Source: Silvanigrellaceae bacterium (GTDB taxonomy: Bacteria > Bdellovibrionota_B > Oligoflexia > Silvanigrellales > Silvanigrellaceae). Taken from it: a stretch of 31,162 nucleotides of DNA. The notes beneath the pieces were generated by a model that did not search any database, had not been told where the DNA came from, and saw nothing but the letters and a program-made list of their open reading frames with translations. The stretch covers positions 1 through 31,162 of the forward strand of contig JBMSQQ010000037.1 of assembly GCA_049423385.1 (NCBI GenBank). The letters run 5' to 3'. A program made the translations under genes and the position numbers. Positions within the stretch are counted from its first letter, which is position 1, and each line of letters begins with the position of its first letter. Of this stretch, positions 1-23,194 are shown one piece after another.

Positions 1-81
1 TTTATCGCTCGCTCCTTGGAAGCTGCAGGCGGAAAGTGTGAGTAAGGAACTCAAGCTACCAAAAGAGAGGAGACGTCTCAT
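1..81 (-). CDS. 5' end of a lipoprotein gene running off the window edge; probable paralog of the 146..3289 gene
   Basis: Not in the ORF track. ATG at 81 reads MRRLLSFGSLSSLLTLSACSFQGASDK, open to base 1. Lipobox LSAC is followed by SF, as in the neighbour (LTSC-SF). The upstream leader is nearly identical to the neighbour's. Confidence 0.8.
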   Translation of the reverse strand, partial: MRRLLSFGSLSSLLTLSACSFQGASDK

Positions 82-100
82 TTTCGACCTGCACTTTCTC
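79..100 (-). repeat. 22-bp leader/start-codon repeat, copy 1 (copy 2 at 3287..3308)
   Basis: cattttcgacctgcactttctc vs cattttgaacctgcactttctc, 20/22 identical; each copy ends at an ATG on the minus strand. Confidence 0.85.
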
Positions 101-145
101 GGTTTCACTTGTAAAGAGGAAAGCCAATATTTTCCTGCCTCCCTC

Positions 146-3100
146 TCAATACACCGCCAACATCGACAAGCTTCCCGTGTAGCCCGTGATTTCAATCACG
201 GCGTCCGTCGCCGCATTGAAGCCCGAGACAGCATCGTTGATGGCGAGGAACGTGCGCACACCAGTGCTTGAATTGAAGGTGAATGTTGCCGCACCGCCTT
301 TGACAAAACTTCTGCTTGTGAGCAACGCTGCGATGCTCGCCGTATCCAATGATTGCACAGCGCCGAGGATTTGTGGCTTGAGAGCTCTGGTGCGTGCAGC
401 GGGGATGTCAATCATGTCGCTGACCGTGTTCAAGTTGGTGATTCTGTCTGGTGTTGAGCTCCAGAGCGCATCGCTCAAACTCACCAAGCGGAAGGTGTTG
501 GTACTTCCAGTTCCTGAGAGCGCGTCGGTACCGACAGTGAAAGTGAGAACCTGTGATGCAACGTCATCGTTCAAGATGACGCCTGTCGCTGTCGTGCTGG
601 TTCCTAAAGTGTACCCAGTTCCGGCCAGCAACGTCAGGTTCACGGTTTCATCACTTTCCAGGCCGCTGTCTGCAATTGGGTCAATCACGACTGTGGCCGT
701 GGCCGCATTGGCTGCGAACGTCGCAGTCTGACTGCTGCTACCAACCACCAGCCCGTTGAAGTCAATCCCAGAAGTTGCGCTTCCTGATGCCGTGAAACTC
801 ACTGTTAGGGGATCTGCCGTCACCACCGAACGCGTGAAGGTGAACACCAGATTGCCGCTGCCATCCTCGCTCACGCTGATGGGTGAGAGTGCGAGGCTGA
901 TTGCTGGCGCGCTGCTGGCGAGATCATCGTTCAGGATCGTGCCGATCACCTCGGTCGTGGTGCCAATCGTGTAGCCCGAACCAAACGTCAGCTGAAGCCT
1001 CACAGATTCATCCCCCTCAAGTAATCCGTCCACCACTGGATCCACCAACACCACAGCGGTAGCAGCATTTGCCGCAAAGGTTACGGACTGAGTCACGACT
1101 GGCAGCAGTCCGGTGTAGTCAACGCCAATGCCGGCGCTACCTCTAACCTGAAAATAGACGGTCAGCGGATCAGCGGTCACCACCGAGCGGGTGAAGTTGA
1201 ACATCAGATTCTCTGTGCCATCTTCCGTCACACTGCTGACCGGCAGGGCCAGTGTGATCACTGGCAGACTTACAGGAGAACTCAACGGTGCGATCGTTCC
1301 GCTGATGAGATAGTGACCAATGCTCGCGTAATCAGTAAAACCTACTCCTGTTGCAGTTGTCGGATCGCCGTATCCAATCCCTTCGAGCTTCAAATAGTAG
1401 GTCCCTGCGGGAAGGCTGCCGATGCGCATCCCATTTAAAAAGCTGCCCCAGATACCACCTGAACCTGTGTAAAGGGTCACAGTTAAGTTTAAATTGGTTG
1501 CGTGATCGTTGAAGCCGTTGGTTGTATTCGTATCCCAAACGTTGGCGATGTTGACGTCATAAGAACCTCCCCACACACCATCCGAATCGACAGAAGCTCT
1601 GTATATGGAGGGGAAAAAACGGAGATCGAGGTCACTGGTTTCCGGCAAATCGATGCGGAACCAGTCCACATCGGACGCTGTCTGGATGGTGCCGAACTGA
1701 CCGACCATACCGTTACGGGGATTCAAAGGAGCAGCATCCAGACGCAGATCACTCTCGGTATCTTGCGCATAGGAGAAGCCATTGTAGCCTGTAACGATGC
1801 CAAGGTCGTCGGCTCCTTTGCCATAGTTCGCTGTGCTGCCCGTATTATTGCTTTGGTAATAGACACCGTTATCCCACGTTGTCATATTCCTGTAGTAGCC
1901 GAGCCCCATGATTGGAGCCCAGCCGTATTGATCGAGCTCGGTGCTGTTGCCGGCGTAATAGCCAACCGCTGTGGTGCCATCAAAAGTTCCGTCATGGGAG
2001 AGGCCGAGAGTATGACCCGCCTCATGACTGATCGCTTCCGACACCCCCAGCACGGAAGTGTTATAAACAAAGCAGGGAGTATCGCTGCCCCAGTTGAAGC
2101 TGTCGATGTAGGCAATGCCTCCGGCACTTCCTGAGGCGGGACCATATCTGGTGATCACCACTCGAATTCCATAATTGACATCCGTACTGTCGCTTTTCAT
2201 GAGCCAATCTTGCGGTGGTTCTTGTGTGGTGACATCGATATCGAAAGCTGCAAAATCAGCAGCAACTCGCTGCCAAATAATCTGAATCATCACCTTCTCA
2301 TTATCACTCAGGACGGCTGAATTGGCATCGATGTTGTAGGGAGGCGAATAAAAGGATGTCCCCATCACTCCGTTGTTCCAGCTGTTCCAATCCGTACCGC
2401 TGGTGGTGTGGCCATCAAAGTCGAGATAAATGACTTTGCTCGCATCGGGTTTGGAGTGGAGTTTGAACGTCTGGTCCAAGGGAAGCAATGAAGCACCGAT
2501 CACCACGCTGTTGTCTGCAGTGAGCAGTGGGTCCGTTCCACTGGCAGTGAGCATTTGTTCTGCAGCAGCGGCAGATTCTCTTTCGATTCCCTCGCAAATC
2601 GCGTCCCACTTTGTAATGACCGCGCCTGAAAGCGCGTCGACAAAAACATGCAATTCACTGGGGTGATAGCTGGAGCCGTGAGAGCCCTTGAGAACCACTT
2701 CGAAAGCTTCTTTGGGTTCACCACCAACGGCATAAACAATCATTTCCGGTTCCGAGCTGTCGTGGATCTCACCATCGAAAACACTCTGCGCGATGTCGGA
2801 TGCCAATTCAGAAGAGATGAGTCCCGAAGCAGACAGTTTGATTTCCTTCTGCAGACTCTTCTCAATCTTTTTGAGGCTACCATCCGACTTGCTCTGAACA
2901 ACAACATCGCCGCCAATCACGCGACGACCTTTGTAGCGGCTCTCCAAACGGATGCTTTCTTCGCTGGCTTCATCAATGATGACCGTCCTCACGGAGAAGG
3001 AATAATCGCTGTTGGTCAGCATCGCATCTGGTTTTGCCTTGATGTGGGCAACTGCACGGTCGATGGCGCGCTGGTAGGACTCCGGAGTTTCTTTCCTCTT

Positions 3101-3289
3101 GGATGCACTTTCCAGCCTTGACGCAACGCTGGATGCACGACCTTGGCCAGCCAGGCCTTGGTTCTGTTCGATACCTTGTTGGCCGTTCTTTTCCAATTGA
3201 ACAATATTTTTATTCAGCGCACTTTCAAAACTGCAAGATGTCAACGCAAGTAACGAAAAAATATTCACAATTAAGCTAAAAATCTTCAT
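146..3289 (-). CDS. Secreted/lipoprotein zinc metalloprotease: FTP/PepSY-like propeptide, metzincin domain, two Calx-beta-like repeats, bluetail-like C-terminal domain
   Basis: Lipobox LTSC. Propeptide-like segments YKGRRVIGGDVVV and LHVFVDALSGAVITKWDAI. LHSKPDASKVIYLDFDGH, zinc motif HEAGHTLGLSHD (~1994-2026) and Met-turn APIMG. Two SVxEDG...TILNDD/VILNDD repeats. C-terminus RTFLAINDAVSGFNAATDAVIEITGYTG. Confidence 0.85.
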   Translation of the reverse strand: MKIFSLIVNIFSLLALTSCSFESALNKNIVQLEKNGQQGIEQNQGLAGQGRASSVASRLESASKRKETPESYQRAIDRAVAHIKAKPDAMLTNSDYSFSVRTVIIDEASEESIRLESRYKGRRVIGGDVVVQSKSDGSLKKIEKSLQKEIKLSASGLISSELASDIAQSVFDGEIHDSSEPEMIVYAVGGEPKEAFEVVLKGSHGSSYHPSELHVFVDALSGAVITKWDAICEGIERESAAAAEQMLTASGTDPLLTADNSVVIGASLLPLDQTFKLHSKPDASKVIYLDFDGHTTSGTDWNSWNNGVMGTSFYSPPYNIDANSAVLSDNEKVMIQIIWQRVAADFAAFDIDVTTQEPPQDWLMKSDSTDVNYGIRVVITRYGPASGSAGGIAYIDSFNWGSDTPCFVYNTSVLGVSEAISHEAGHTLGLSHDGTFDGTTAVGYYAGNSTELDQYGWAPIMGLGYYRNMTTWDNGVYYQSNNTGSTANYGKGADDLGIVTGYNGFSYAQDTESDLRLDAAPLNPRNGMVGQFGTIQTASDVDWFRIDLPETSDLDLRFFPSIYRASVDSDGVWGGSYDVNIANVWDTNTTNGFNDHATNLNLTVTLYTGSGGIWGSFLNGMRIGSLPAGTYYLKLEGIGYGDPTTATGVGFTDYASIGHYLISGTIAPLSSPVSLPVITLALPVSSVTEDGTENLMFNFTRSVVTADPLTVYFQVRGSAGIGVDYTGLLPVVTQSVTFAANAATAVVLVDPVVDGLLEGDESVRLQLTFGSGYTIGTTTEVIGTILNDDLASSAPAISLALSPISVSEDGSGNLVFTFTRSVVTADPLTVSFTASGSATSGIDFNGLVVGSSSQTATFAANAATATVVIDPIADSGLESDETVNLTLLAGTGYTLGTSTTATGVILNDDVASQVLTFTVGTDALSGTGSTNTFRLVSLSDALWSSTPDRITNLNTVSDMIDIPAARTRALKPQILGAVQSLDTASIAALLTSRSFVKGGAATFTFNSSTGVRTFLAINDAVSGFNAATDAVIEITGYTGSLSMLAVY
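565..1266 (-). repeat. Two tandem ~115-aa Calx-beta-like domains within the protease gene
   Basis: Both copies share FTRSVVTADPLTV, TFAANAATA, GYTxGT and ILNDD. Boundaries approximate. Confidence 0.8.
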
Positions 3290-3308
3290 TTTGAACCTGC
3301 ACTTTCTC
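3287..3308 (-). repeat. 22-bp leader/start-codon repeat, copy 2
   Basis: See 79..100. Confidence 0.85.
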
Positions 3309-3325
3309 CGGATTTTATTGCACAG

Positions 3326-3352
3326 TTATCGGCAACAATTGGATCGGATTTT
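3326..3352 (-). promoter_or_regulatory. Putative sigma28 (FliA)-type promoter
   Basis: Minus strand reads AAAATCCG-N11-GCCGATAA, 36 nt before the ATG. Perfect -10 box, weak -35. Confidence 0.5.
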
Positions 3353-3410
3353 TTGCAGTCAAGATTGAGAGGTGTGTTTAGAAGTACGCTGAAGTCGCCG
3401 GGCTCAAAGC

Positions 3411-3445
3411 AGAAAAGGCAATATTTAAAGTTTGAAATATTGCCT
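3411..3445 (-). terminator. Intrinsic terminator-like hairpin (or palindromic operator)
   Basis: 11-bp perfect inverted repeat aggcaatattt/aaatattgcct (3416-3426, 3435-3445), followed by a short T-run on the minus strand. Confidence 0.55.
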
Positions 3446-3557
3446 GTGTTCGTTTTATTAAATCGGCTCTGGATAACTCAACGAGACCCACAACCGGCCC
3501 CAGTCAGGTGAGCAAAAACCCGCAGGAAGGTTATTCTGGAATATGCACAAGGGTCCT

Positions 3558-3595
3558 AAACGAACAAAACCAAAATACTTTATTTCATTTTGGTT
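3558..3595 (-). terminator. Probable terminator of the 3623..4210 gene
   Basis: 9-bp inverted repeat aaccaaaat/attttggtt, 27 nt after the stop, with a T-rich tail on the minus strand. The stem is AT-rich. Confidence 0.45.
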
Positions 3596-3622
3596 GAGTG
3601 CTGTCCTTACAGACCAGTAAAC

Positions 3623-4210
3623 CTATTTTCTGGTTAAGCCTTCCTCTAATCGAGTCCCCGGCGTTGCTGTCACCAACGTCAACGGCGCTTGATTCTTGCG
3701 CTCTTCCATTTCACGCTTGAACGTTTCATCTGACTTGAAGACAAATTCATGAGCAAGAAAACGATTTATCCCGATGGGCGGCGGAAGAAATCGAAGACCA
3801 GAAAGTGACTTGGAAATGCAGTCTGTGAATTTGTTATCTGTAAAGTCTGAATCAGCGAGTTCGAAATTATTAAGCTTCCCATCTTCAGCAACATGAAAAA
3901 CAAATGTAACCTTACCTTCAAAAATTTCAGCGGACTCTGGGTTCACCCCAGGTTTCGCTGTTGGTTTTGACTCGTCATATCCATTGTTACGAAGCATCGT
4001 CTTGTAGCAAGCTGATAATGTTTTCCGTCGCTCCTGCGACATTATTTTATCTCCAAAACCATTTCTTCGGTATGCCTGCTCTGCCTTGTTGTCTGGCGGG
4101 GGCGTCATCACGATCACGTTTCGTTGACCAAAAGAATAACCCGCGACGGTCGCTATTCCAAAAATTGCCAAACCGGCTGCAATCGTTTTCGGGCTCAAAG
4201 CTGACTTCAT
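3623..4210 (-). CDS. Membrane-anchored AgmX/PglI C-terminal (TonB-C-like) domain protein
   Basis: N-terminal hydrophobic helix, then LSACYK...EGKVTFVFHVAEDGK...SDFTDNKFTDCISKSLSGLRFLPP...FVF, the two-Cys pattern of this domain. Confidence 0.7.
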   Translation of the reverse strand: MKSALSPKTIAAGLAIFGIATVAGYSFGQRNVIVMTPPPDNKAEQAYRRNGFGDKIMSQERRKTLSACYKTMLRNNGYDESKPTAKPGVNPESAEIFEGKVTFVFHVAEDGKLNNFELADSDFTDNKFTDCISKSLSGLRFLPPPIGINRFLAHEFVFKSDETFKREMEERKNQAPLTLVTATPGTRLEEGLTRK

Positions 4211-4288
4211 GCCGCATCCCTCTGGACCGTTTCTCTTGCTTCGAGAGTAACATACTCGCTGAAGGGAATCTCTAAATGTGCTCAGTTA

Positions 4289-4325
4289 CGGAACGGAGAC
4301 TGCACTTTCTGCAGTCTCCGTTCCG
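4289..4325. repeat. Perfect 16-bp inverted repeat with 5-nt loop
   Basis: cggaacggagactgca-ctttc-tgcagtctccgttccg; no U-tract on either side. Confidence 0.9.
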
Positions 4326-4432
4326 GGGCACTAGTTAAATAACTCAAGGAATTAGAAATTTCACCGCCGTCTGAACAGGCTTGTGCACAGTTTTGAAGTT
4401 CGCTAGGTTTGGCAGTCCAACGAACAACCACA

Positions 4433-5697
4433 TCACATTGTGGTGGTTGTTCCGCTGGTGTCTGGCATGGTTTGAGTTGTCGCTGTCTCGGTCGAGGAAC
4501 TCTCTGCCTTGGCTTTTGCAGCTGCTTCTGCTGCATCAATCTCAGACTGACTCAATCCGCTGTCGGCAAGCGCATCGCCAACACTTTCGCCGATTTTTTG
4601 CTCCATGCTGTCCTTGACGGTTTGCGGCACATCCACCTCTGCCAAACCGGCACCGGCTCCATCTGCAATATCGTCGGTGTATTGGTTGAATTCTTCCTTT
4701 GGAATTCCCGCATCGGCAAGGCCATCGGTTGCGCCTGCCGACACGCCGCCAATCAAGGCTTTCAATTCATCATCACTGAGTTTTTCATTCAGATCCTGAG
4801 AACCAGCAACAGCTCCCTCGGACACTGCAGCGATGATTTCTGCATACTTGCCTTTGTCCACTTCACCATCATCGAGTCCTGCGACAAGTCCGTGGCTGAT
4901 GGACGATGCAAAATCATCCCAAAGATTTTTGTCTTCAATACCAATGTCGTCGATGGCTCCAACCTGTGCGTCCGCCACAGCCTTCATTTTTTTCCGCCAT
5001 TTCGGCATCGCTGAGGCCTGCATCCTTGAATCCATCCACCACGGATTCATTCATGCCTTCCAGAATTTCCTTGATTTCCTCTGGCGTCAAAGTCGACGGA
5101 ATTCCCTCGACCGCGCCTGCCATCATCGCTACAGACATTTCGTCCATTTGATCTTTGGAGATGCCAAGTTCGTCGAGACTGCCAATGGAGGACTTGATCA
5201 TCTCACCCGATGCCTCATCACGATCTGCGGCAGGAATTCCGCAGTCGTCCATGTTGTCCATGACCGTTTCCGAAATTTCCTTGAGGGCTTCATCGTAGTC
5301 ATCCGCTGCAACACCGGAATCCTTCAGTCCCACAATCGATGCTTGAGCAATCACTGCCGGCATTTCCTTCAGGCTTGCACCCAATTCCGCTGAACGAGCC
5401 GCGAGGCTTTTTTGCACGATTTCAACGATCGCATTCAAAATCGCCAGAATCTTGGTTTTGTCGACGACCCCGGCTTCATTGAATGCAGCAACCGCACCTT
5501 CCACGAAACCTGCAATTTCAAGTTCTGCCGGGGTGTCTGCTCTTGCAAGACTCAGGCTGCTCGTGCCCTTTTTTGCATCCGCTTTTTGTTTTGCGGCATC
5601 GGTGATGATTTTTGCCTGCTCTTCAGTCAGACCCTTGGACTTCAGTGCATCAGTGAGCTGTATGGAAAGCCGACTGGTCGATTGCAGGTTCCTGTTT
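4433..5697 (-). pseudogene. Acidic helical 25-aa-repeat protein gene, split by a 1-nt frameshift and lacking a credible start
   Basis: ORFs 4935..5753 and 4433..5050 join if one A is removed from the A7 run at 4987-4993 (MAEKNEG becomes MAEKMKAVADA), which restores an exact 25-aa repeat unit. The called start lies inside the upstream peptidase gene. A sequencing error is also possible. Confidence 0.7.
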
Positions 5698-6729
5698 TTA
5701 CAAGCTTTCAACAAGTACGCCAGCCACCAAATGAGCCCACATCCAGACTTCATCTGACGCAGTCACGTCACTGTTGTAAGGATAGTGAAGGAATGCTGCG
5801 CCAGGCTTCTTGCGAAACTTCGGCGCCAGAGTCAGGCGCCCACCGGCCAATGGCAACGCGCCCAAACGCAATCCTGCCAGCACAGCATAGCTGACGTTGT
5901 TGCAAACGTAATTATTGAGCGGGTCAGCCGATTCCATTGGCACAAATTTCCACGCCTGATCCTGTTCACTCCGACCCAGACTCTCGCTGAATTGCTCCAA
6001 ACGCAGACGATGACGCGAAGCGATTTTCTGCGGTTGCCAGTTCATGGCGATTTCATCGGGAAGATTCAACTCACGAGGCACTATCCAATCCGATACGGGC
6101 GCGTTGACTTCACCCAATGCTTTTCCGCGTGGGTCAAAGCCTGACAAACCCGTCGTTTTGTTGAGTGCACCCGCCTCGAGTCGAACGCCGGTGGGATTCG
6201 CACCATAGCCGGTCATGAGAATGAAATCTGGCTGAAAACGTTCGGCTTCATGAAGAATCACCGCAGCCGCAAAGTCCCACTCAACTGTCAATTTGAGAAG
6301 GCACAGCTCAATCTCTTGCCCATCAAACTTGAGTGTTCGTTGAATCGCGATGCCACCGCTGGCTCCCGGAGAATCATCAGGCTTGAACTCGGGAACATCA
6401 AACTGACCATCCTGCGGCCACGCGGATACCGCGGGCCACAGAGAAGAACGTTGCAGAACATCGACCACTGCACCTGAAATGTTGTGTTTGCGATTGAATG
6501 GCCCGAATCCCGACAACAAGACACGCTTGCGGGTTGAACCCGAGTTTGTGCAGCCTTGGCTGCGGTTCGATTTGTAGGTTTCAAAATTGCGCGCCACGCG
6601 GCTGTTGCCGGTCAACCCCAAATCGGTTGCAAAATCGGAGTCCCGAATTCCCTGTTGGGGAATGCTGCAGGCAGAGTGGCCGAGCAAAAGCAAAAGCAAA
6701 AGTACAATCTGCAGAGGCAACCATTGCAT
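5698..6729 (-). CDS. Pyroglutamyl-peptidase I (C15)-like lipoprotein
   Basis: VLLSGFGPF...NIS, RLE (Glu), NNYVCN (Cys), FLHYP (His). Start moved to ATG 6729 (AGGAG upstream), giving a signal peptide ending HSAC. Confidence 0.8.
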   Translation of the reverse strand: MQWLPLQIVLLLLLLLGHSACSIPQQGIRDSDFATDLGLTGNSRVARNFETYKSNRSQGCTNSGSTRKRVLLSGFGPFNRKHNISGAVVDVLQRSSLWPAVSAWPQDGQFDVPEFKPDDSPGASGGIAIQRTLKFDGQEIELCLLKLTVEWDFAAAVILHEAERFQPDFILMTGYGANPTGVRLEAGALNKTTGLSGFDPRGKALGEVNAPVSDWIVPRELNLPDEIAMNWQPQKIASRHRLRLEQFSESLGRSEQDQAWKFVPMESADPLNNYVCNNVSYAVLAGLRLGALPLAGGRLTLAPKFRKKPGAAFLHYPYNSDVTASDEVWMWAHLVAGVLVESL

Positions 6730-7071
6730 GGATAGACTCCTGAGGCATATTTCAGGTCGAACCAGTTTGATTTGCGCCCGATGGAAAAGAATATCACGAG
6801 ACGCGAGACTCTCCATCCAGCGTTGAAAATACCTTCCTAAAAACAATCATGAACATCGTATTCCAACTGTGTCTGCGGGTATGGCAGCGGTTGCGCGGAA
6901 GCCCTCTGAAGTTACAGTTTACAAATACGAAAACAATCATAAAATTAGATAAACACCCGTTTTTATTGATTTTAAATATAAAACAAAAAGTTCACTTCAT
7001 ATTTCCATTATAGCTCCGATAAGAGTGTTGATGGTAATTTATCCACCAGAGTTGAACGGAGACAGATTCAC

Positions 7072-7435: not shown

Positions 7436-8983
7436 TCAGGTTGAAGCCACCGCTGCTGCGTCTTCCGCTCCAACAGCCTTCTCAATGCGCGGTTCCCCAC
7501 CATCGTAGACCAACAGGCGCGGTTCGCCTTCCAGTATCGTCGAAAGGTTCACAGGCCGGTTCCAAATCTTGAAAAGACTACGCATGGTTTCCATCGCCCA
7601 GTCGATCTTCAGGTCCTTGCCCTGGTGCTTGTGAGTCAAAAGCAATTCACCGCGATTCTGGAAATTGCCATCGACAACCTCAATCACGGGTTGACCAAAA
7701 TTGGTCAAAGCATCGAGAAGCTCTCTCTTGATTGCCGGAAAATCACGATCATTGATGACCGCTTGGCCTGTCCTGCGATCCGCGGCCCAGGTGAACATCT
7801 TGGCCTCTTCGCAAAAATCCTCGTCCAGGAATTCGTCGATGAACGTGATGTCGTTATGGTACTTTCGAACTTCGAACAACTTTTGGCGGCCTGCATTGGT
7901 ATTGGTGTTCCAGGCCTTGCGAACCGCCGGATCATCACACAGCATGTAGTCGAGTCCGAAACGCCCCTTGTTCCAGCGGTTTTCAATGTGACGCATGAGT
8001 TCCACACCAACCTTGTATGGATTCAGCCTCATTCCGGATGTTGCCGTGACGCCTGCATAATGGTCACAGTAATCAATCACTTCGGAGTCGTTGAGTACAA
8101 ACTCGGTCATCAGCTTGGAATGCCAATAAACAGCCCAGCCCTCGTTCATGATCTTTGTTTGTCCTTGCGGAGCAAAGTAATAAGCCTCTTCACGAACAAT
8201 CGAAAGAACATCCCGCTGCCAGCTTGAAAGAGGCGCGTGCTCGATCAGGAACTGCAGCACATCACGACGTGCCGACTCGGGAAAGCGCTTTTCGCGCTCG
8301 AATTCGCGCACGATCTTTTCTTGCTGCTCCTTCAAATAACTCTCCGGATTGATATAGCCATCCATGTAGCTGCGCTGTGTTGGCAACTTTGGAACCGGAC
8401 GCTTCTCCGGCGGCAACATATCATCAGGATCTCGCGACAACTTGGGTTCGCGACGAATATGTGGAGCATGCTGGTCGATAAGATTCTCAATCGACAAACA
8501 CGTGTCTATGAACGTCTCGACCTCGTCATGGCCAATTTCTTCGATATAACGACGGACGCGACTGCCATGGTTGGCCATCTCGTCGAGCATCTTTCGGTTG
8601 GTATGCTGAAAACAGTAGTTGTTCTTGAAGAAGTCGCAGTGTCCATACACATGCGCAATCACCGTCTTCTGGTCGACAAGCGAGTTGCTCTTGAGCAGAT
8701 ATGCGTAACAAGGGTCGTTGTTGATGACCATCTCGTAAATCAGACTCAGGCCATACTCATAGCTCTTTGAGAGATGCTCATATTCCATCCCGAATCGCCA
8801 ATGCGGATAACGGGTCGGAAATCCTCCATAAGCGGCAATCTCGCTCATCTGCTGATAATCAACCATCTCAAAGATGACCGGAAAGAAATCGAGGCCAAGA
8901 TTTTTACATTGGGATTCGATTTCCCGAACGATATTTTTGAGCTCAGGAGTGAGCTCGCTGGTCAGGCGCGGGTCCATCACCAT
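7436..8983 (-). CDS. spoVR: SpoVR/YcgB family protein
   Basis: AYGGFPTRYPHWRFG, IYEMVINNDPCYAYL, HVYGHCDFFKNN, QTKIMNEGWA, NPYKVG. Confidence 0.95.
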   Translation of the reverse strand: MVMDPRLTSELTPELKNIVREIESQCKNLGLDFFPVIFEMVDYQQMSEIAAYGGFPTRYPHWRFGMEYEHLSKSYEYGLSLIYEMVINNDPCYAYLLKSNSLVDQKTVIAHVYGHCDFFKNNYCFQHTNRKMLDEMANHGSRVRRYIEEIGHDEVETFIDTCLSIENLIDQHAPHIRREPKLSRDPDDMLPPEKRPVPKLPTQRSYMDGYINPESYLKEQQEKIVREFEREKRFPESARRDVLQFLIEHAPLSSWQRDVLSIVREEAYYFAPQGQTKIMNEGWAVYWHSKLMTEFVLNDSEVIDYCDHYAGVTATSGMRLNPYKVGVELMRHIENRWNKGRFGLDYMLCDDPAVRKAWNTNTNAGRQKLFEVRKYHNDITFIDEFLDEDFCEEAKMFTWAADRRTGQAVINDRDFPAIKRELLDALTNFGQPVIEVVDGNFQNRGELLLTHKHQGKDLKIDWAMETMRSLFKIWNRPVNLSTILEGEPRLLVYDGGEPRIEKAVGAEDAAAVAST

Positions 8984-8985
8984 GA

Positions 8986-10089
8986 TTATTTTCCTTTGCC
9001 CAGAAAGACCTTGAGGGCGTTCATGATGCCATCACGATCCTTGATCTGATGGGTCACGACTTTTTCCTGTGCTTCACCAAAATGCTTTTCCAAATCCTTG
9101 AGAAACTGGCCGCTGCCATATCGGCTTTCAACCTGCCCATAACAGAACAGATTGGAAGCGGGCAGCAAGACATTGTCGAGCAACAACATACACTCATTGG
9201 TGTCGTTGCCACTCCAGTTGTCTCCATCAGAGAAATGGAACATGTACACATTCCATTCATCCAACGGATAGTCTTCCTTGATAATCTTCTCAGACAACTT
9301 GTACGCACTCGAGATCAACGTGCCACCACTTTCCTTTGTGTGATAAAACGTCTGCTCGTCGACTTCGCGTGCAACAGCATCGTGAATAATGAAACGTGTT
9401 TCGATATTGTCGTAATTGCGCTTCAACCAGGTGTCGAGCCAGAAGGCCGTCAAACGGACTATCTCCTTTTGCTCGTCACCCATCGAACCCGAGACGTCCA
9501 TCATGTAAATGATCACAGCGCTCGCTTCCGGATTTTCTTCGATCTTGAAGCTGCGGTAGCGCTTGTCTTCCTTGATGGGAATGACTGAAGGACGATCAGG
9601 CACGTATTCATCCGAAGCAATTTGGCGCTTGAGCGCTTCCTTGTAGGTGCGCTTGAAATTGCGCAACCCTTCAGGTCCCGTCTTGAGCACACCGTGATAC
9701 TTGTACTTCCTGGACTTGACGTTCTTTTTACCCTTGTCCTCGATGCGTGGGAGTTGAAGCTCCTCGCCCAAAATATCGGCAAGCTCTTCGAGCGAAACGT
9801 CCACCTCTAGTCCATGCTCGCCCGCGTTTTGTCCCGCTTCACCCTCACCGGGTTGCGGCTGGCCTTGGTTCAACGGATCTCCGGGATCACCATCGCCCTG
9901 CCCGACACCCTTTTGTTGGTTTCCACCAAACTGGAAACGCGGAAGATCGATGCGCGGCAACGGAATCGTCACCTGCTTGTTGCCCTGTCGGCCGATCAGT
10001 TCACCCGAAGAAATGAAGCGCTTGAGGTTTTCCTTGATGCGCCCCCGAACGATCCTTCGGAATCGGTTGACATCGGTTTCCATCTTCAT
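8986..10089 (-). CDS. yeaH: YeaH/YhbH (DUF444, VWA-like) protein
   Basis: [13 protein letters not shown]-like motif, [20 protein letters not shown]; lies between prkA and spoVR. Confidence 0.93.
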
Positions 10090-10138
10090 GTTGAAAACTC
10101 CTCAAGCGCGCAGGTCGGCTTCACGCCGACAATCGTCA

Positions 10139-12202
10139 TCAATTCGCAGAACGCTTCACATCACCGCGGGCAAAGATGCTCGCCACAAAATGCAATGCGT
10201 CGTTCGAACAAATGTCGCAGTAGCCATAGTTCTTGATGAGGCGATTCTTGACCACATCGATCTTGGCTTGTGTCTCTTTGTCGACGACGTTGGACACCAG
10301 GCTCGTGAGCTTGATTGTGTCTTTTTGGTCTTCAAAGAGCTTGAGCTCGAGAGCTTTATGCAGGCGCTCGTTCGTCTTGTAGTCGAAGGTTTTGCCTTCA
10401 AGCGCAAGTGCACCGATGTAATTCATGATCTCACGACGGAAGTCATCCTTGCGGCTTTCCGGAATGTCGATCTTCTCTTCGATGCTGCGCATCAAACGTT
10501 CATCAGGCTCTTCGCTTTGTCCGGTGTACTTGTTGCGCACACGTTCTTTCTGCGTGTAGGCCTTGACGTTGTCGATGTAGTTGCCGCACAGCTTGGCAAT
10601 CGCCTCTTCATCGGCAGAAATCGCGCGCTGAACTTCGTTCTTCACGATATCTTCATATTCCTGCTTCACGACAGCAAGCAGTTCGCGGTAGCGCTTCTTG
10701 GTTTCTTCATCGCGAATCAATGAGTGGTTCTTGAGACCACCTTCGAGTTCGTTGAGAACAATGAACGGATTGATACAACCGTTGCCGCGATCATCCACAA
10801 GCGCGTTGGAGATCTTGTCCTGGATGTAGCGCGGAGAGATTCCATCAAGACCTTCGCGCATGGCTTCTTTGCGCAATTCCTTGATGTTGTCTTCCGTGTA
10901 ACCAGGCAAGGTCTTGCCATCGTACAGCTTGAGTTTCTGCATCACCGTCAGGTTGGCCTTCTTGGGCTCCTCGAGACGTGTCAGGATCGCCCACATCGAA
11001 GCGGTTTCGATCGTGTGCGGCGCAACGTGAATGTGCGGAACGCTCTCGGCATTGAAATCCTTGCGGTAGATCTTGGTTTCTTCCTTGAGCTTGGTGATGT
11101 ACGGAACATCGATTTTCACTGTACGGTCGCGCAACGCTTCCATGAACTCATTGTTCTGCAGCTTGCGATACTCAGGTTCGTTTGTGTGACCAACAATAAC
11201 TTCGTCGATATCAGTCTGTGCGAACTTCTTGGGCTTGATGCGGTGTTCCTGCGAAGCACCGAGTAGGTCGTAAAGGAATGCCACATCGAGCTTGAGCATT
11301 TCGACAAACTCAACCATCCCGCGGTTGGAGATGTTGAACTCACCATCAAAGTTGAACGCACGCGGATCCGAGTCCGAACCGTACTCCGCAATCTTGCGGT
11401 AGTTGAGGTCACCAGTGAGTTCTGTCGAGTCCTGGTTTTTTTCGTCTTTGGGCTGGAATGTTCCAATACCCACACGATCTTTTTCCGAAAGCAGCAGGCG
11501 ACGGACACGAATATGGTTCCTCACCACCCGTTCCCAATCACCGCCGTATTGCTTCATAAGCTCGTTGAAAACAAAACGACACGCAGGGTCGATATTTCCT
11601 TCCACAAAAATCTTCTGATCAAACGTCTTGCCTTTGTTGAGATGGCTGAGCACTTTTGCGCGTGCCTCTTCAGGAATCAGACGCAGTGGTTCCTCGTGCA
11701 TCGGGCACGCCATGATGTCATCCATCGCGAGGCGTTCTTTGAGGTTGATCCAGTCGTAAGTGTAGAGCGCACCTTCAGCCTGGTAGGAATACCATTCGAG
11801 ACCTTTTTTCAGAAGCCGCGCGATCGTCGACTTCGCAGATCCCACTGGACCGTGAAGCAAAAGAACGCGTTTCTCTGGGCCATAGCGCAAACTCGCGGCC
11901 TTGAAGAAATTGACAAGCTTGACGAGATGAACGTCAAGGCCAAACACAGCATCCTTGCCGCCGGCGAGCGGATCATCAAAGAACTTGTAGTGCACAAGCT
12001 TCTTTTTATGCTCTACGTATTCGTAGGTACCGAAGTGCATAATCATATCATAAACACGCTGAAATGCAGTTCTGCAGACGCGAGGATTCTTCTCGACGAT
12101 GTCGAGATAATCAATAAAGCTACCCTGCCAATTGAGTTCGTTGTAATGGGTCGGACTGTAGGCATCGCGAACAATATCGTAGATCTTGTGACTCTGTTGC
12201 AT
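10139..12202 (-). CDS. prkA: PrkA/YeaG family AAA+ serine protein kinase-like protein
   Basis: [12 protein letters not shown]alker [37 protein letters not shown]. Start moved to ATG 12202 (GGAGGAG upstream). Confidence 0.95.
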
Positions 12203-12354
12203 AGCTCCTCCGGCAAAACGAAACTCGCCTTGGCACCGCACCGATCCCTTTGGCACAGGTGATGTCGAATTCGATCTGTTCAGAGTAACCATGCAGAATC
12301 AGGAGGTCAAACCAATCACTCGGGAATGACAGTTTCCCCACCCCAAAATTTTGT

Positions 12355-17135: not shown

Positions 17136-18278
17136 TCAACGGCTCTTGCGGACAAACTCCTTGATGATGACACTGCGCAGAATCTCGCTGGTGCCACCAC
17201 CAATCTCAAGAAGCTTGGCATCGCGCATCAGCCGCTCAACCGGAAATTCACGGATGTATCCGTAACCACCCAGAACCTGGATTGCATCCAGTGCCACCTT
17301 GGTTGCCATCTCGGAAGCAAAGACCTTGGCCGCTGCAGCTTCCTGGTTTGCACGACGACCTTCATCGATCACCTGCGCTGCTTCATAGACCAACGCCCGA
17401 GCCGCACGGTAACCAATGTACATGTTGGCCAGCTTCTCGCTGACAGATTGGAAGTTCACGATGGATTCGCCAAACTGGCTACGCTCTTGTGAATACTTCA
17501 GCGAGTGATCCAAACAAGCTCTCGCGATTCCCAAACTCATGGCGGCAAGACCCACACGTTCGATGTCGAGGTTCTTCATCATGTGTTTCACACATGCGCC
17601 TTCTTCACCCACGCGGTTTTGAACCGGAACCCGACAATTGCGGAAAACAAGTTCTCCCGTTGGGCTCGAGCGCATGCCCATCTTCGAAAGTTTTTTGCTG
17701 ATTGTGAATCCAGGGAATCCGCTTTCGACAATGAACGTGGAAAGGTCCTGGCGATTTTCGCCCGTGCGTGCGTAGACCAAGAAAACATCACCAATGGGGC
17801 CATTGGTGATGAACATTTTTGTTCCGTTCAAAACGTAATGGTCATCTTCACGCACTGCTCGTGTCGACATGCCGACTGCATCAGATCCAGCACCTGGTTC
17901 GGTCATCGCCATGCCGGCAACCAACTCGCCTGTCATGCAACGGGGAAGATAACGCTCGCACTGCTCTTTGGAACCGTTTTGGGCCAGGTTGTGAACAAAA
18001 AGAAGCGAGTGTGCCAAGTAGGAAAGACAGGTTCCTGGTTCTGCATAGCTGAGTTCTTCCATCACCGAAACCATAGCCTTCGCGCCCAGATTCACTCCTC
18101 CGAATTCTTCCGGAATCGTGATCCCAAGAATGCCGAGGTCGCCCAGCTTCCTGAAAATGCCGGGAGCAAGACGCTCTTCTCTGTCGAGTTCATCGGCATG
18201 CGGCGCAAGCTCTTTGCTTGCAAATGCGCGCACAGTTTGAGTGAGTTCTTTCATTTCTTGAGAAAAGTCGTTCTTCAT
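17136..18278 (-). CDS. liuA: Isovaleryl-CoA dehydrogenase (acyl-CoA dehydrogenase family)
   Basis: LSYLAHS, MTEPGAGSD, LNGTKMFITNGP, LDIER, RDAKLLEIGGGTSEI; liu operon context. Start moved to ATG 18278. Confidence 0.85.
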   Translation of the reverse strand: MKNDFSQEMKELTQTVRAFASKELAPHADELDREERLAPGIFRKLGDLGILGITIPEEFGGVNLGAKAMVSVMEELSYAEPGTCLSYLAHSLLFVHNLAQNGSKEQCERYLPRCMTGELVAGMAMTEPGAGSDAVGMSTRAVREDDHYVLNGTKMFITNGPIGDVFLVYARTGENRQDLSTFIVESGFPGFTISKKLSKMGMRSSPTGELVFRNCRVPVQNRVGEEGACVKHMMKNLDIERVGLAAMSLGIARACLDHSLKYSQERSQFGESIVNFQSVSEKLANMYIGYRAARALVYEAAQVIDEGRRANQEAAAAKVFASEMATKVALDAIQVLGGYGYIREFPVERLMRDAKLLEIGGGTSEILRSVIIKEFVRKSR

Positions 18279-18309
18279 ATTCCCTCTCCCGTGTTCACCA
18301 CTGGAATTG

Positions 18310-20400
18310 TTAAGCTGGATCTTTGATTTCTGCCAAAACTTCCGGACCTGCAAGTGTCATGCCTGCCTGAACCCGCAGCGACGAAAGCACTCCCGCACGA
18401 GGTGCCCTTATTTCAAGCTGCATCTTCATGGACTCAAGCACAAACAGCAGATCTCCCTCATTGACTTTATCGCCATCGGCAACACGAACCTCAAGTACTT
18501 TGCCTGCCATCGGAGCCTTGAGCAATGTGTCGCCGCCCCCGTCCTGCGCACCGACCTCGAGCTGAGCCCGAGAATCATCAGGCCATTCCAGAGTTAAAGT
18601 CTCGCCAAACAACGTGATTTGAAGATGTTGGCCACGCGGACGTGACAAAGTACAAACAACTTCGAGGTCATTCCCCTGGCCTGCTTTTGCCCGCTGACAC
18701 GCTGACTGCAAAGAAAATGTGCTTCTTTCCAGAGATTCCCAACTGAGCTCCGCAAGCGTTTCAACCAATCCACGTCCACGGATACGAAAGACGTGAGAAG
18801 CGTCACCCGCTACAACATCGACGCTCGAATATTCGGCCTTTGAACCAACATTCAAACCCGACAAATCACGTGCTCGCGTGACCGGAATCAATGCCGCGAA
18901 TCTTTGCCCGATGTGCTCACCAAGCCCCTCGGTACGGTCGAAATTGTTACGTTGCGCATCTTTCAGCAAGAGGGCCGAAGCCAATGCCCGGCGCACATCC
19001 ATGCGATGGAAAAATGAAATCAACTTTTCGGGAATCAGAGACTCATTGAGTCCCTGAGCGTGTTCGCCAATCCAAGCGGTGGAAACGGCTCCAGAGATAT
19101 AATCGGAATGCTGCGCGACAGCGGTCAGAAATGGCAGGTTGGTTGTGCAACCGTGCACCACCGTCGACTCCAGGCCACGCGCCAACAAGTCGCACGCTGC
19201 AGCACGCGTGGGCGCATGAGCGATGATCTTGGCAATCATGGAATCAAAGCGATCGTTGACCCTTCCACCTTCCACAACCCCCGAATCCACACGCACGCCG
19301 GGCAGAGTTGTTTCCTTGTAAACCACCAAAGGACCCGGTGTCGGCAGAAATCCGGAACGGGGATCCTCTGCCAACAGGCGTGCTTCAATGGCAACACCTT
19401 TGGGAACCGGCAATGTGAAGACGTCGGGTCGCCCCAATTGAACGGGCCATTGTCCCATGGCCAAATCAAATTGCGCTTTGACGAGATCGACGCCGTAAAC
19501 AAGTTCCGTGACAGGATGTTCAACCTGCAGACGTGTGTTCATTTCCAAAAAGAAAAAACCACCATCGCCAGTCAGCAAAAATTCCACCGTGCCGGCGCCG
19601 CGGTATTTTGTTTCGGCAACCAATGCCAGCGATGCTTTGCCCATGCGCTCGCGCAAGGCTGCATCCACCACGGGACTGGGCGCTTCTTCGAGAACCTTCT
19701 GATGGCGGCGCTGCAGGGAACACTCACGTTCGCCCAGAAACACGCCGCCCCCGGTGCCATCGCCAAAAACCTGAATTTCCACGTGACGGGGAGCTACAAG
19801 GTAACGCTCCACAAACACCGTCGGATCATTGAAGCTGGCCTGCGCTTCTTGCGCGGCGCGCCTGACGGCCTCGGGAAGGTCTTTGAAGTTGTCGACGATG
19901 CGCATGCCGCGTCCACCACCACCGCCGCTGGCCTTCACAAGGTAGGGAGCAACGATGCCACGTTTTTGCAACGCCTCTGGCCATTTGTTCTCGGGTATTG
20001 ATTTGAGTTCGTCACTCAACAAAGCTTCAAGTGTTGGAACTCCGCATTTTCTTGCGAACGCTTTGGCCGATTCCTTGCCACCCATGGCCTGCATGTTTTG
20101 TGCTGTGGGCCCCACGAAGGCGATACCAGCATTTTCAACCAACCGAGCAAAATCGGCGTTCTCGGAAAGAAAGCCATAGCCCGGGTGAATCAACTCTCCA
20201 CGCCAATGCTTTGCGGCATCGACAATCGCCTGTGCATTCAAAAAGCTGTCGACTTCCAAAACCGCATCTGCTTCAAACCGAACAGGTGCATCGCTATCCT
20301 CTGGAGTCGAAATGACTGCGACCTTCCAGCCATAATCGCGTCCGGCGCGCAGAATCCTGCGGGCAATTTCTCCACGGTTTGCAATGACAAGTCGCTTCAT
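18310..20400 (-). CDS. liuD: Acyl-CoA (probably 3-methylcrotonyl-CoA) carboxylase alpha subunit: biotin carboxylase plus biotinyl domain
   Basis: IANRGEIA, HPGYGFLSENA, GGGGRGMR, ECSLQRRHQK, EMNTRLQVEHPVTE, biotin site ESMKM. Confidence 0.88.
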   Translation of the reverse strand: MKRLVIANRGEIARRILRAGRDYGWKVAVISTPEDSDAPVRFEADAVLEVDSFLNAQAIVDAAKHWRGELIHPGYGFLSENADFARLVENAGIAFVGPTAQNMQAMGGKESAKAFARKCGVPTLEALLSDELKSIPENKWPEALQKRGIVAPYLVKASGGGGGRGMRIVDNFKDLPEAVRRAAQEAQASFNDPTVFVERYLVAPRHVEIQVFGDGTGGGVFLGERECSLQRRHQKVLEEAPSPVVDAALRERMGKASLALVAETKYRGAGTVEFLLTGDGGFFFLEMNTRLQVEHPVTELVYGVDLVKAQFDLAMGQWPVQLGRPDVFTLPVPKGVAIEARLLAEDPRSGFLPTPGPLVVYKETTLPGVRVDSGVVEGGRVNDRFDSMIAKIIAHAPTRAAACDLLARGLESTVVHGCTTNLPFLTAVAQHSDYISGAVSTAWIGEHAQGLNESLIPEKLISFFHRMDVRRALASALLLKDAQRNNFDRTEGLGEHIGQRFAALIPVTRARDLSGLNVGSKAEYSSVDVVAGDASHVFRIRGRGLVETLAELSWESLERSTFSLQSACQRAKAGQGNDLEVVCTLSRPRGQHLQITLFGETLTLEWPDDSRAQLEVGAQDGGGDTLLKAPMAGKVLEVRVADGDKVNEGDLLFVLESMKMQLEIRAPRAGVLSSLRVQAGMTLAGPEVLAEIKDPA

Positions 20401-21269
20401 TTTAGTTCTCCAAACGTGTCAGCAGGGAGATCGGCAGACCATGCAGCTGATTGCTTGTCAAAGAAACTCGCCAGTCCATGTTGCCCTTCTGCCGAACAAC
20501 GCGCCAAGGCGATAGACACGGCTGTGAATTCAAAAAGACCCGTGTCTGGCAACGGATGTATCTTGCGCAGCAGCTCTTTGGTGCGGCGTGCTGCATTGGG
20601 GCCTGCTTTCAGATGCTGGTTCACCACTTCGCACGCTTTGAGTGACAAAGCATTGCTGTCGGCTGAATCGACAACATGATTGACAAGCCCCAACTGCAGG
20701 GCCTGTGTCGAATCCAGACGTTCGCCCGAGAGCATAAACGGTGCTGCCTTTCCGGCCCCCAGCTTGCGAACGATGTACGGGCTGATCACACCTGGTACGA
20801 TTCCCAAGCGCACTTCGCTGGTGGCAAAAACTGTTTTTGAATCTGCAATCACCACGTCAGAACAACAAACCAAACCAAAACCACCGCCAATGGCACTGCC
20901 ACGCACAACTGAAACGACGGTCGTGGGGAAGCTGGCCAAGCGGAAGAAAAGCGTTCCGAGAACTCGCGCATCGCGCAAACTTTGTGGTTCGCCGGCCTTG
21001 GACTGTTCGCGCATGTAATTGAGATCGGCGCCTGCGCAGAAATGTCCACCTGTGCCTTCAAGCACAAGAATCCGCATCTGGTTTTCATCTTTTGTCGCCG
21101 CAAGCTCGGCAATAACATCGGTGAGCTCGGTGATCATTTCGGCATTGAAAGCGTTGCGTACGGCAGGACGGTTGAGAATCACCCGAACCACACCCTGCCC
21201 TGCCCGCCGCACCAGGACGGTTTGACCATCATAGTCCTTGCTCAAATCGGGAACATCTTTGCGACTCAT
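20397..21269 (-). CDS. liuC: Enoyl-CoA hydratase family protein, probable methylglutaconyl-CoA hydratase
   Basis: LNRPAVRNAFN, FCAGADL, GGGFGL, SEVRLGIVP.VISPY; 4-bp ATGA overlaps with both neighbours. Confidence 0.85.
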   Translation of the reverse strand: MSRKDVPDLSKDYDGQTVLVRRAGQGVVRVILNRPAVRNAFNAEMITELTDVIAELAATKDENQMRILVLEGTGGHFCAGADLNYMREQSKAGEPQSLRDARVLGTLFFRLASFPTTVVSVVRGSAIGGGFGLVCCSDVVIADSKTVFATSEVRLGIVPGVISPYIVRKLGAGKAAPFMLSGERLDSTQALQLGLVNHVVDSADSNALSLKACEVVNQHLKAGPNAARRTKELLRKIHPLPDTGLFEFTAVSIALARCSAEGQHGLASFFDKQSAAWSADLPADTFGELK

Positions 21270-23179: not shown

Positions 23180-23194
23180 GGTTCAAAATTCCTT

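Follow-up and report, generated by a model that had tools for sequence, protein, structure and literature searches.

A predicted metzincin protease with a lipoprotein signal, an M4/M36-type prodomain and a picocyanobacterial-type body in a freshwater Silvanigrellales genus

The DNA analyzed here (the window) comprises 31,162 nucleotides, positions 1 to 31,162 of contig JBMSQQ010000037.1 in the Silvanigrellaceae assembly GCA_049423385.1. This assembly is a metagenome-assembled genome (MAG; G000 in our set) of 183 contigs, with 90.6% completeness and 1.78% estimated contamination. Close to position 1 lies a gene for a predicted protease made of two parts (Table 1). The head, which is everything upstream of a conserved cysteine motif, contains a lipoprotein-type signal peptide and an FTP/PepSY prodomain. 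The body contains a metzincin catalytic domain, a PPC beta-sandwich, two Calx-beta domains, and a C-terminal domain matched by the bluetail model. The transition between head and body is called the seam. An earlier note on this DNA had described the gene as a native export and propeptide module grafted onto a horizontally acquired gene of cyanobacterial type. Our comparisons indicate that the junction is real, that the body is related to picocyanobacterial proteins, and that heads and bodies in this small protein family have recombined.

Table 1. Features of the window, and public contigs that cross the seam, in window coordinates.
Feature	Residues (aa)	Position (nt)	Strand	Basis
Whole gene; stop codon 146-148, ATG start; identical protein P0001	1047 plus stop	146..3289	minus	open reading frame list
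Lipoprotein-type signal peptide, lipobox LTSC with Cys19	1-19	3233..3289	minus	lipobox pattern only
FTP + PepSY prodomain fold	70-235	2585..3082	minus	sub-threshold Pfam plus fold matches
Pfam FTP	100-142	2864-2992	minus	sub-threshold
Pfam PepSY	158-228	2606-2818	minus	sub-threshold
Conserved Cys motif DAIC(232)EGIE, candidate cysteine switch		2582..2605	minus	alignment; between PepSY domain and cyanobacterial-type sequence
Metzincin catalytic domain	273-520	1730..2473	minus	Reprolysin_3, zinc motif, adamalysin fold
Zinc motif HEAGHTLGLSHD		1991-2026	minus	motif position
Met-turn M461	461	1907-1909	minus	invariant alignment column
PPC / collagen-binding-domain-like beta-sandwich	521-668 (fold match from ~513)	1286..1729	minus	fold matches
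Two Calx-beta domains	~676-790 and ~795-911	557..1264	minus	weak Pfam; fold; repeat visible in alignment
C-terminal domain	912-1047	149..556	minus	fold similar to C-termini of type I secretion substrates
Bluetail match	995-1042	164-307	minus	NF041519
Start of tandem paralogue (gene B), ATG 81, lipoprotein signal, lipobox LSAC; cut by contig end	first 27	1..81	minus	translation
PrkA, DUF444 (YeaH-like), SpoVR-like set, intact		7436-12292	minus	Pfam
Acyl-CoA dehydrogenase, biotin carboxylase/biotin carrier, enoyl-CoA hydratase, AtuA, carboxyltransferase cluster		17136-24802	minus	Pfam
Public contig X1 (17,962 nt)		1-4200		
Public contig X3 (25,275 nt)		213-4200		
Public contig X4		2443-2945		
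Public contig X6		2476-2865		

Prodomains of M4 and M36 proteases act as folding helpers and inhibitors and are cut off on activation (the titles of Protein Data Bank (PDB) entries speak of an "autoprocessed complex"). Like these zymogens, the window protein begins with a predicted signal peptide followed by a predicted FTP/PepSY prodomain. Its N-terminus, MKIFSLIVNIFSLLALTSC, contains L-T-S-C at aa 16-19, as found by a regular expression, and has a hydrophobic maximum of 2.57. The lipobox cysteine is one of three cysteines in the protein (C19, C232, and C406). On this pattern, the protein is probably exported and lipid-anchored. Both prodomain matches are below the Pfam cut-offs (PepSY 20.3 bits, cut-off 24; FTP 16.1 bits, cut-off 21); FTP and PepSY are above the cut-offs in the relatives P0009 and P0010, and PepSY scores 24.4 bits in P0006, a paralogue in the same genome. 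Fold comparisons with the PDB used AlphaFold2 models of aa 21-680 (mean predicted local distance difference test, pLDDT, 80.2) and aa 790-1047 (pLDDT 92.6). In the first model, aa 70-235 resemble the fungalysin propeptide of Aspergillus Mep (4k90_B, Z 12.9, 151 residues aligned) and the propeptide of vibriolysin MCP-02 (3nqz_A, Z 12.1, 147 aligned of 175; 3nqy_A, Z 11.9), so that the similarity spans 146-151 residues, and Foldseek matched the prodomain to 3nqy_A with E 6.8e-8. Unlike in M4 and M36 zymogens, the catalytic domain that follows is a predicted metzincin and not a gluzincin, and neither Peptidase_M4 nor Peptidase_M4_C had a Pfam match at E ≤ 1 in the window protein. The FTP/PepSY-like propeptide and the missing thermolysin domain of the earlier note are thus borne out, and its lipoprotein signal agrees with the lipobox pattern.

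Sequence and predicted fold mark the window protein as a predicted zinc metalloprotease of the metzincin clan, similar to adamalysins and reprolysins. Reprolysin_3 (PF13582) matches aa 362-433 with 26.9 bits, above its cut-off of 22.4. The zinc motif HEAGHTLGLSH begins at aa 422, and H422, E423, H426, H432, and M461 of the Met-turn are unchanged across 13 aligned homologues, in agreement with the HExxHxxGxxH plus Met-turn domain that had been read from the sequence before. In the predicted model, aa 282-504 (model residues 262-484) resemble adamalysin II (2aig; Z 9.4, root-mean-square deviation 3.6, 153 aligned), a middling Z for a 660-residue model, and other snake-venom metalloproteinases match the same region. 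Features shared with the M12B adamalysins/reprolysins (adamalysin II, atrolysin C, and ADAM33; Z 9.1-9.4, about 150 aligned) are the HExxHxxGxxHD motif, the Met-turn, and an upstream cysteine. Unlike adamalysins, the window protein is bacterial and predicted to be lipoprotein-anchored, its prodomain is unrelated, and it has PPC, Calx-beta, and bluetail appendages. Sequence similarity to adamalysins is marginal, and a phmmer search of the catalytic and PPC part against PDB sequences found nothing close (best E 0.91).

The cysteine switch is a prodomain feature of adamalysins and matrixins. In the window protein, the propeptide ends at a conserved cysteine, C232, within WDAICEGIE; cyanobacterial homologues share this cysteine, and homology to them begins at the motif, which reads DG[IV]C[AE]ELL or similar in the cyanobacterial proteins. 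Of 62 close homologues (a list with several duplicates), 50 have a cysteine 25-60 aa ahead of the catalytic start, and in four more rows it is at 24 residues. By resemblance to adamalysins and matrixins, Cys232 is a candidate cysteine switch, and the prodomain and Cys232 may keep the enzyme latent. In place of the single cysteine of the picocyanobacterial type, Nostoc-type and related homologues (P0062, P0066, P0086, P0104, and similar) carry a conserved CxCxxC motif 29-34 residues upstream of the catalytic domain.

No Pfam match to PPC was found in the window protein, and weak ones occur only in P0013 and P0016. The domain, an addition to the domain list of the earlier note, was recognized by the fold of aa ~513-668, which resembles the collagen-binding domain (CBD) of ColG (5iku, Z 13.9) and a PPC domain of Bacillus anthracis (5sv5, Z 11.6). 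The ColG CBD alignments begin at model residue ~240 (protein ~260), before the catalytic domain, and in the predicted model a strand before the catalytic domain closes the PPC sandwich (model residues 493-648); the catalytic domain would then be an insertion within PPC. Two Calx-beta-like repeats and a C-terminal bluetail segment had been noted earlier, and both observations hold. Calx-beta (PF03160) scores 18.3 bits, below the Pfam cut-off of 27, the second repeat (aa 790-911) has a fold similar to NCX1 CBD1 (2dpk; Z 12.8, 116 aligned), and the repeat is visible in the alignment. The bluetail hidden Markov model (HMM) NF041519 matches aa 995-1042 of 1047 with E 4.5e-16 and 58.4 bits, against a cut-off of 21.

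Serralysins and the S-layer protein RsaA carry their secretion signals in C-termini to which the last ~137 residues of the window protein are similar in fold. The best matches of aa 910-1047 were PrtC (1k7g residues 348-479, Z 10.1) and RsaA (6p5t_C residues 884-1022, Z 9.4), followed by alginate epimerase (Z 8.2) and alkaline protease (Z 7.8). A single-sequence search of the tail against PDB sequences gave just two weak, unrelated hits (E 0.17 and 0.24). Tail identity is 80-87% among copies from the genus and 47-66% to cyanobacteria. The earlier note held the bluetail domain to be characteristic of cyanobacterial surface proteins; it is not confined to cyanobacteria, as the HMM is above its cut-off in the control genome of Caulobacter vibrioides, and the tail has the fold of type I secretion C-termini. 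The HMM also matches the control genome of Synechococcus elongatus. On this evidence, the bluetail may be a C-terminal domain for type I secretion and not an anchor specific to cyanobacteria. A subgroup of cyanobacterial homologues has no bluetail (L104:9348-9767, L106:1771-2190, L108:2120-2539, L109:11264-11683, and L102:10509-10928) and shows a Pro/Ala-rich region followed by a shared ...W-ALA C-terminus, which in L109 reads ...SALA. A profile built from an 8-row tail alignment was set aside as mixed, since five rows lack bluetail.

Gene fusions at contig ends can be produced by assembly, and the earlier note had suggested looking for sequence that spans the junction. Public contigs from four runs in two studies bridge the seam, and their pieces show 0 differences. 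Two of them, X1 and X3, may come from the source samples; X4 and X6 are not flagged as such. Independent assemblies show the fused architecture as well, namely contig C45 of the window's genome (P0006, locus L002), genome G005 (P0009, locus L088), and the metagenomic proteins P0010 and P0389. The junction is real and not a misassembly.

The body has its closest named relatives in picocyanobacteria. Among the 120 best of 402 homologues, these are "bluetail domain-containing putative surface proteins" of Vulcanococcus, Cyanobium, and Synechococcaceae. Within GTDB species genomes, the body is matched best by Cyanobium (54% over aa 268-1047) and by a Cyanobacteriota MAG; the next matches, in Planctomycetota, Nostoc/Moorena, Verrucomicrobiota, and Bacteroidota, are at 27-45%, and locus L065 has a best segment of 50%. 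In the catalytic domain, the window protein shares 64-67% identity with picocyanobacterial proteins, and 65-67% with P0012, P0018, and P0027. Picocyanobacterial bluetail proteins such as P0018, P0019, and P0044 (64-66% in the catalytic domain) share the metzincin, PPC, Calx-beta, pre-tail, and bluetail parts and the upstream Cys motif. Unlike the window protein, they have neither lipobox nor FTP/PepSY, their N-termini are low in complexity and often His/Asp-rich, and they have one Calx-beta domain instead of two. The closest unfused relative, P0002, has a cyanobacterial-type N-terminus without FTP/PepSY and is 84% identical to the window protein in the catalytic domain and 68% in PPC. A limited literature search found no published function for picocyanobacterial bluetail proteins and no description of the bluetail domain. 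Cyanobacterial homologues P0028-P0040 and similar proteins begin with the motif M-A-x-R-I-Q-R-L-P-x-x-L-P-W-T-F-E-Q and have no signal peptide. Directly downstream of a Cyanobium bluetail metzincin is a SapC-family gene (L008:3597-4385, plus strand).

Distribution of the body in the class of the host is patchy. The metzincin body was found in 3 of 61 genomes (G000, G005, and G012), all of the window's genus, in which the other ten of the 13 sampled genomes (70-98% complete) gave no match. The bluetail HMM matches the same three genomes of the class, and in the host genus it occurs solely on these proteases. In the Cyanobium family, it matches 23 of 101 genomes; single genomes have as many as 8 matches, and the open frames that carry them range from 52 to 4395 residues. 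The body most likely came from picocyanobacteria by horizontal transfer, as its sequence relationships suggest.

Prodomains are usually regarded as co-evolved with one catalytic fold, and the relatives of this head were searched separately. When aa 55-245 were compared by phmmer with 1.84 billion representatives, 332 hits were obtained, and two fused proteins, P0009 and P0010, ranked highest. Pfam was run on 70 of the other 148 hits listed: 58 have Peptidase_M4 domains, none has a metzincin domain, and 12 have no catalytic domain (11 fragments of at most 342 aa and one 566-aa protein). One fragment, P0121, ends in IPLDQTF, the start of the metzincin domain, and is the sixth fused protein. Genome and metagenome loci provided 103 homologous open reading frames (ORFs), 56 of which have at least 110 residues before the catalytic domain. 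Of these N-terminal regions 52 were scanned, leaving out one of 2025 residues and three duplicates. FTP/PepSY was present in three, all from the window's genus, and in 0 of the 49 other homologues. A limited literature search, which is no proof of absence, found no printed description of a PepSY/FTP-metzincin fusion.

The window's genome has at least two genuine M4 thermolysin-like proteases with FTP/PepSY prodomains (G000:C44:3-1205 and G000:C108:4071-6587); they carry HEMSHG/HEMTHG zinc sites and GGLNEATSD, and the C108 protein has a long Ig/PKD-like C-terminal extension. Their propeptides are just 28-32% identical to the head, and among named M4 proteins, those of the Burkholderiales genera Ideonella and Rhizobacter come closest to the head. 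In a tree of 30 rows, the six fused prodomains form one clade (support 100/99) apart from 24 M4-type rows, including five short fragments in which no catalytic domain was detected; the C108 prodomain is not sister to the fused clade. These comparisons do not support the native origin of the propeptide assumed in the earlier note.

Identity profiles and trees indicate that heads and bodies have different histories. Compared with P0006, the window protein is 77% identical in the prodomain, 52% in the catalytic domain, and 44% in PPC; compared with P0009 and P0010, it is 43-44% identical in the prodomain and 55% in the catalytic domain. In a sliding-window comparison with P0006, identity is 65-90% over aa 61-220 and 35-55% after aa 300, which puts the change at about aa 220-300. 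For the catalytic and PPC region (58 rows, 392 columns), a careful IQ-TREE analysis grouped the window protein with P0008 (98/95), P0004 of genome G012 (95/82), and P0002 (100/100). This group is sister to P0012 and P0047 (99/98) and belongs to a 39-row ingroup clade (100/100) that also holds named Cyanobium, Vulcanococcus, and Synechococcaceae rows. The paralogue L002 is in a 17-row clade (98/91) within a 22-row clade (100/98) with named Cyanobium rows, and it is set apart from the window clade by several branches with support of 96/90 to 100/98. A third lineage, made up of P0009 and P0010 (95/99), branches off close to the base of the 39-row clade. Approximately unbiased (AU) tests rejected a single clade of the five FTP-bearing bodies on the quick tree (delta lnL 152, p 1e-39) and again with P0002 and P0004 added (delta lnL 45.4, p 7.35e-4). 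Because the propeptides form one clade while the bodies do not, we conclude from these sequences that heads and bodies have recombined. The graft of a propeptide module onto a metzincin proposed earlier is real as a fusion but not as a single graft, given six proteins with one propeptide clade and bodies outside one clade. The separate searches and trees suggested in the earlier note confirmed that the histories differ and that the body nests with picocyanobacteria; they gave no support for a native head.

Tandem copies point to ongoing exchange. The ATG of gene B lies 64 nt after the stop codon of the studied gene (gene A), and contig X1 runs 1059 nt past window position 1. In register with the start of gene B, this extension repeats window positions 2834-3091 (258 nt, inside the FTP region), 2403-2476 (74 nt), and 2137-2206 (70 nt) with no differences, and the identical stretches of genes A and B are separated by diverged stretches of different length. 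The tandem copies are a patchwork of identical segments such as gene conversion would leave. Genome G000 has at least three copies, and contigs C50 and C51 have bluetail-encoding fragments at their ends. As far as the short contigs reach, the flanks of the C45, G005, and G012 copies are not syntenic with the window: the gene that lies upstream of the window gene was not found beside them.

The N-termini of fused and unfused proteins also differ in export signals. By pattern, a lipobox is present in 4 of 5 fused (FTP-type) N-termini and in 0 of 40 N-termini of cyanobacterial type, of which five have a hydrophobic maximum of 2.0 or more. Two cyanobacterial genomes with such proteases, G061 and G183, matched a PrtD model over positions 2-541 with 384 and 382 bits, respectively. 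The G061 match adjoins matches to an HlyD model, and another G061 locus scored 204.5 bits for HlyD. In the host genus, PrtD scores were 157-170 bits in G000 (163), G005, and G012, and HlyD scores in these three and G001 were at most 42.5 bits, reached in G000. Model TIGR01842 matched each of 31 relatives via generic ABC ATPase domains, in no case above cut-off, and is therefore uninformative by itself. The cyanobacterial homologues are probably type I secretion substrates because they combine the lack of a signal peptide, a serralysin/RsaA-like tail fold, and PrtD/HlyD-type genes.

We consider it fairly probable that a picocyanobacterial-type, probably type I-secreted metzincin was acquired, that its N-terminus up to the Cys motif was replaced by a lipoprotein signal and an M4-type prodomain, and that this head later recombined with other bodies. 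The gene product would be an exported, lipid-anchored zinc metalloprotease zymogen, one of a small mosaic family in a single uncultured freshwater Silvanigrellales genus. Its metzincin, PPC, Calx-beta, and bluetail parts would have been acquired from picocyanobacteria (Cyanobium, Vulcanococcus), and all that lay upstream of the Cys motif would have given way to the signal peptide and the M4/M36-type FTP/PepSY prodomain. The new head would route the protein via Sec/Lol instead of type I secretion, and the prodomain would supply the folding helper and inhibitor needed by a protease that folds in the periplasm. As a selective reason for the replacement, this switch of export route is at best an even proposition. 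As the propeptides are monophyletic, the head would have arisen once, and the bodies that now carry it would belong to two or more, probably three, different cyanobacterial branches. The simplest route would be for a resident fused gene to undergo homologous recombination with bodies that had newly arrived or were paralogous.

Several results weigh against this account or parts of it. There is no compositional trace of transfer: the third-position GC content (GC3) shows no step at the seam (0.581 in the prodomain, 0.577 in the catalytic domain), and the whole gene (GC 52.7%, GC3 58.6%) is within the range of the genome (51.9 +/- 2.0 and 56.0 +/- 3.9), so any transfer was not recent or came from a donor of similar GC. 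The comparison of codon usage across the junction suggested earlier thus revealed no break, and of the proposed horizontally acquired body of cyanobacterial type, the nesting in a picocyanobacterial clade and the occurrence in 3 of 61 class genomes stand without compositional support. Across 201 picocyanobacterial genomes, no body match above 55% was found, which does not pin down the donor. The contig encoding P0002 was not found in a metagenome scan (best hit 58%), nor was its source organism; its amino-acid make-up (GARP/FYMINK 1.02) overlaps both groups. In the body tree, the attachment of P0009 and P0010 is weak (77/84), the branches of L002, P0008, and P0009 are long (0.52-0.65), the AU test shares the weaknesses of the model, and the seven-row AU set that includes P0002 and P0004 was chosen after the tree had been seen. 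P0121 is labelled Myxococcota by its depositor, and the fusion may be older and wider than one genus. P0121 also lacks the Cys, and the linker of aa 233-261 was modelled at pLDDT below 50, giving no structural support; Cys232 stays a candidate switch by resemblance.

The secretion argument has points against it as well. Unlike serralysins and RsaA, the window protein has a predicted N-terminal lipoprotein signal, which type I substrates lack, and RTX nonapeptide repeats were not detected (no HemolysinCabind match at E ≤ 1 in the window protein); such repeats are present in distant Nostoc homologues. Five cyanobacterial homologues have no bluetail at all. Curated cut-offs for PrtD and HlyD were reached in no genome, and the control Caulobacter did not reach that for PrtD. 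No ABC/HlyD pair was found beside cyanobacterial homologues among 35 flanking ORFs of five loci (from 62 listed). Type I secretion genes comparable to the cyanobacterial ones were not found in the host genus, which in incomplete MAGs does not prove that they are absent.

Other histories can be proposed for the same data. A cyanobacterial fragment joined to a Silvanigrellales contig in assembly or binning would suit a gene at a contig end of a MAG with many contigs and some estimated contamination; it is refuted for practical purposes by the bridging contigs, two of which extend over 18-25 kb with 0 differences, by the same architecture on C45, in G005, and in P0010 and P0389, and by the continuous GC3. 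If instead a single fusion had descended vertically by duplication, without head-body recombination, the polyphyly of the bodies would be an artefact of unequal rates. The long terminal branches (L002, P0008, P0009, and P0010), the weakly placed P0009 and P0010, and the monophyletic propeptides fit such a history, which is nonetheless unlikely: the AU tests reject one body clade, well-supported branches separate the window clade from L002, the ratio of prodomain to catalytic identity flips between P0006 (77%/52%) and P0009 (43%/55%), and the identical segments of the tandem copy indicate that exchange happens.

The direction of transfer may also be questioned, with the body native to an Oligoflexia lineage that had FTP/PepSY and the picocyanobacteria acquiring it and losing the head. 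The position of P0009 and P0010 near the base of the 39-row clade, the unremarkable composition of the window gene, and the missing source of P0002 are compatible with this. We regard it as very unlikely, as the body was found in one genus alone among the 61 genomes of the class, more distant family members without FTP/PepSY occur in Nostoc, Planctomycetota, Verrucomicrobiota, and Bacteroidota, bluetail is found on many unrelated proteins of picocyanobacteria and in the host genus on these proteases alone, and the matching type I secretion genes are in cyanobacteria. Similarly improbable is that the protein is still a type I substrate in its host, with the N-terminal hydrophobic stretch a membrane anchor or irrelevant and FTP/PepSY a binding module. 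The conserved tail with its PrtC/RsaA-like fold, and the incompleteness of the genome, would allow this; however, PrtD and HlyD scores in the genus are far below those in cyanobacteria, most fused N-termini have a lipobox, and the propeptide fold matches true M4/M36 prodomains over 146-151 residues.

The host is a freshwater Silvanigrellales bacterium (Oligoflexia), a placement based on the PrkA sequence of the window, which is 98% identical to a protein of a "Pseudomonadota bacterium" MAG, 88% to those of a Silvanigrellales bacterium and Spirobacillus cienkowskii, and 75-79% to those of Oligoflexus, Pseudobacteriovorax, and Oligoflexales. The cluster that includes AtuA (Table 1) looks like a catabolic operon of leucine/acyclic-terpene type, and the remaining window genes, including PdxJ and SMC, are ordinary housekeeping genes. 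Four ORFs of 195, 205, 272, and 382 aa without Pfam match occupy positions 3623-6846 (minus strand), a stretch with unusually negative GC and AT skew; two of them (4433-5050 and 4935-5753) overlap and are rich in Asp, Glu, and Ala.

If the favoured account is true, with replacement of the N-terminus of a picocyanobacterial-type metzincin by a lipoprotein signal and prodomain, this would be a natural case of a horizontally acquired secreted enzyme refitted from type I secretion to the Sec/lipoprotein route by a front-end swap alone, and such a swap could recur through recombination. An M4/M36-type prodomain would here serve a metzincin. If bluetail is a type I secretion domain, many cyanobacterial proteins would have to be re-annotated. 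The earlier note saw a possibly predatory lineage that reused a prey-derived gene as an adhesin-protease; nothing in our analysis supports predation or a prey origin, and that proposal is speculation. A more tentative reading, which we think doubtful, treats the head as a reusable "domestication head": in a lineage that lacks type I secretion, incoming cyanobacterial genes for type I-secreted metzincins would be useful only after recombining with a resident fused copy, one and the same head would have captured bodies of several cyanobacterial branches, and the partly identical tandem copies would serve as the workshop. Since in that reading picocyanobacteria that co-occur with the host are the source of the bodies, surface or S-layer-like proteins of cyanobacteria may be substrates of the enzymes, and the genus may be an attacker or scavenger of picocyanobacteria.

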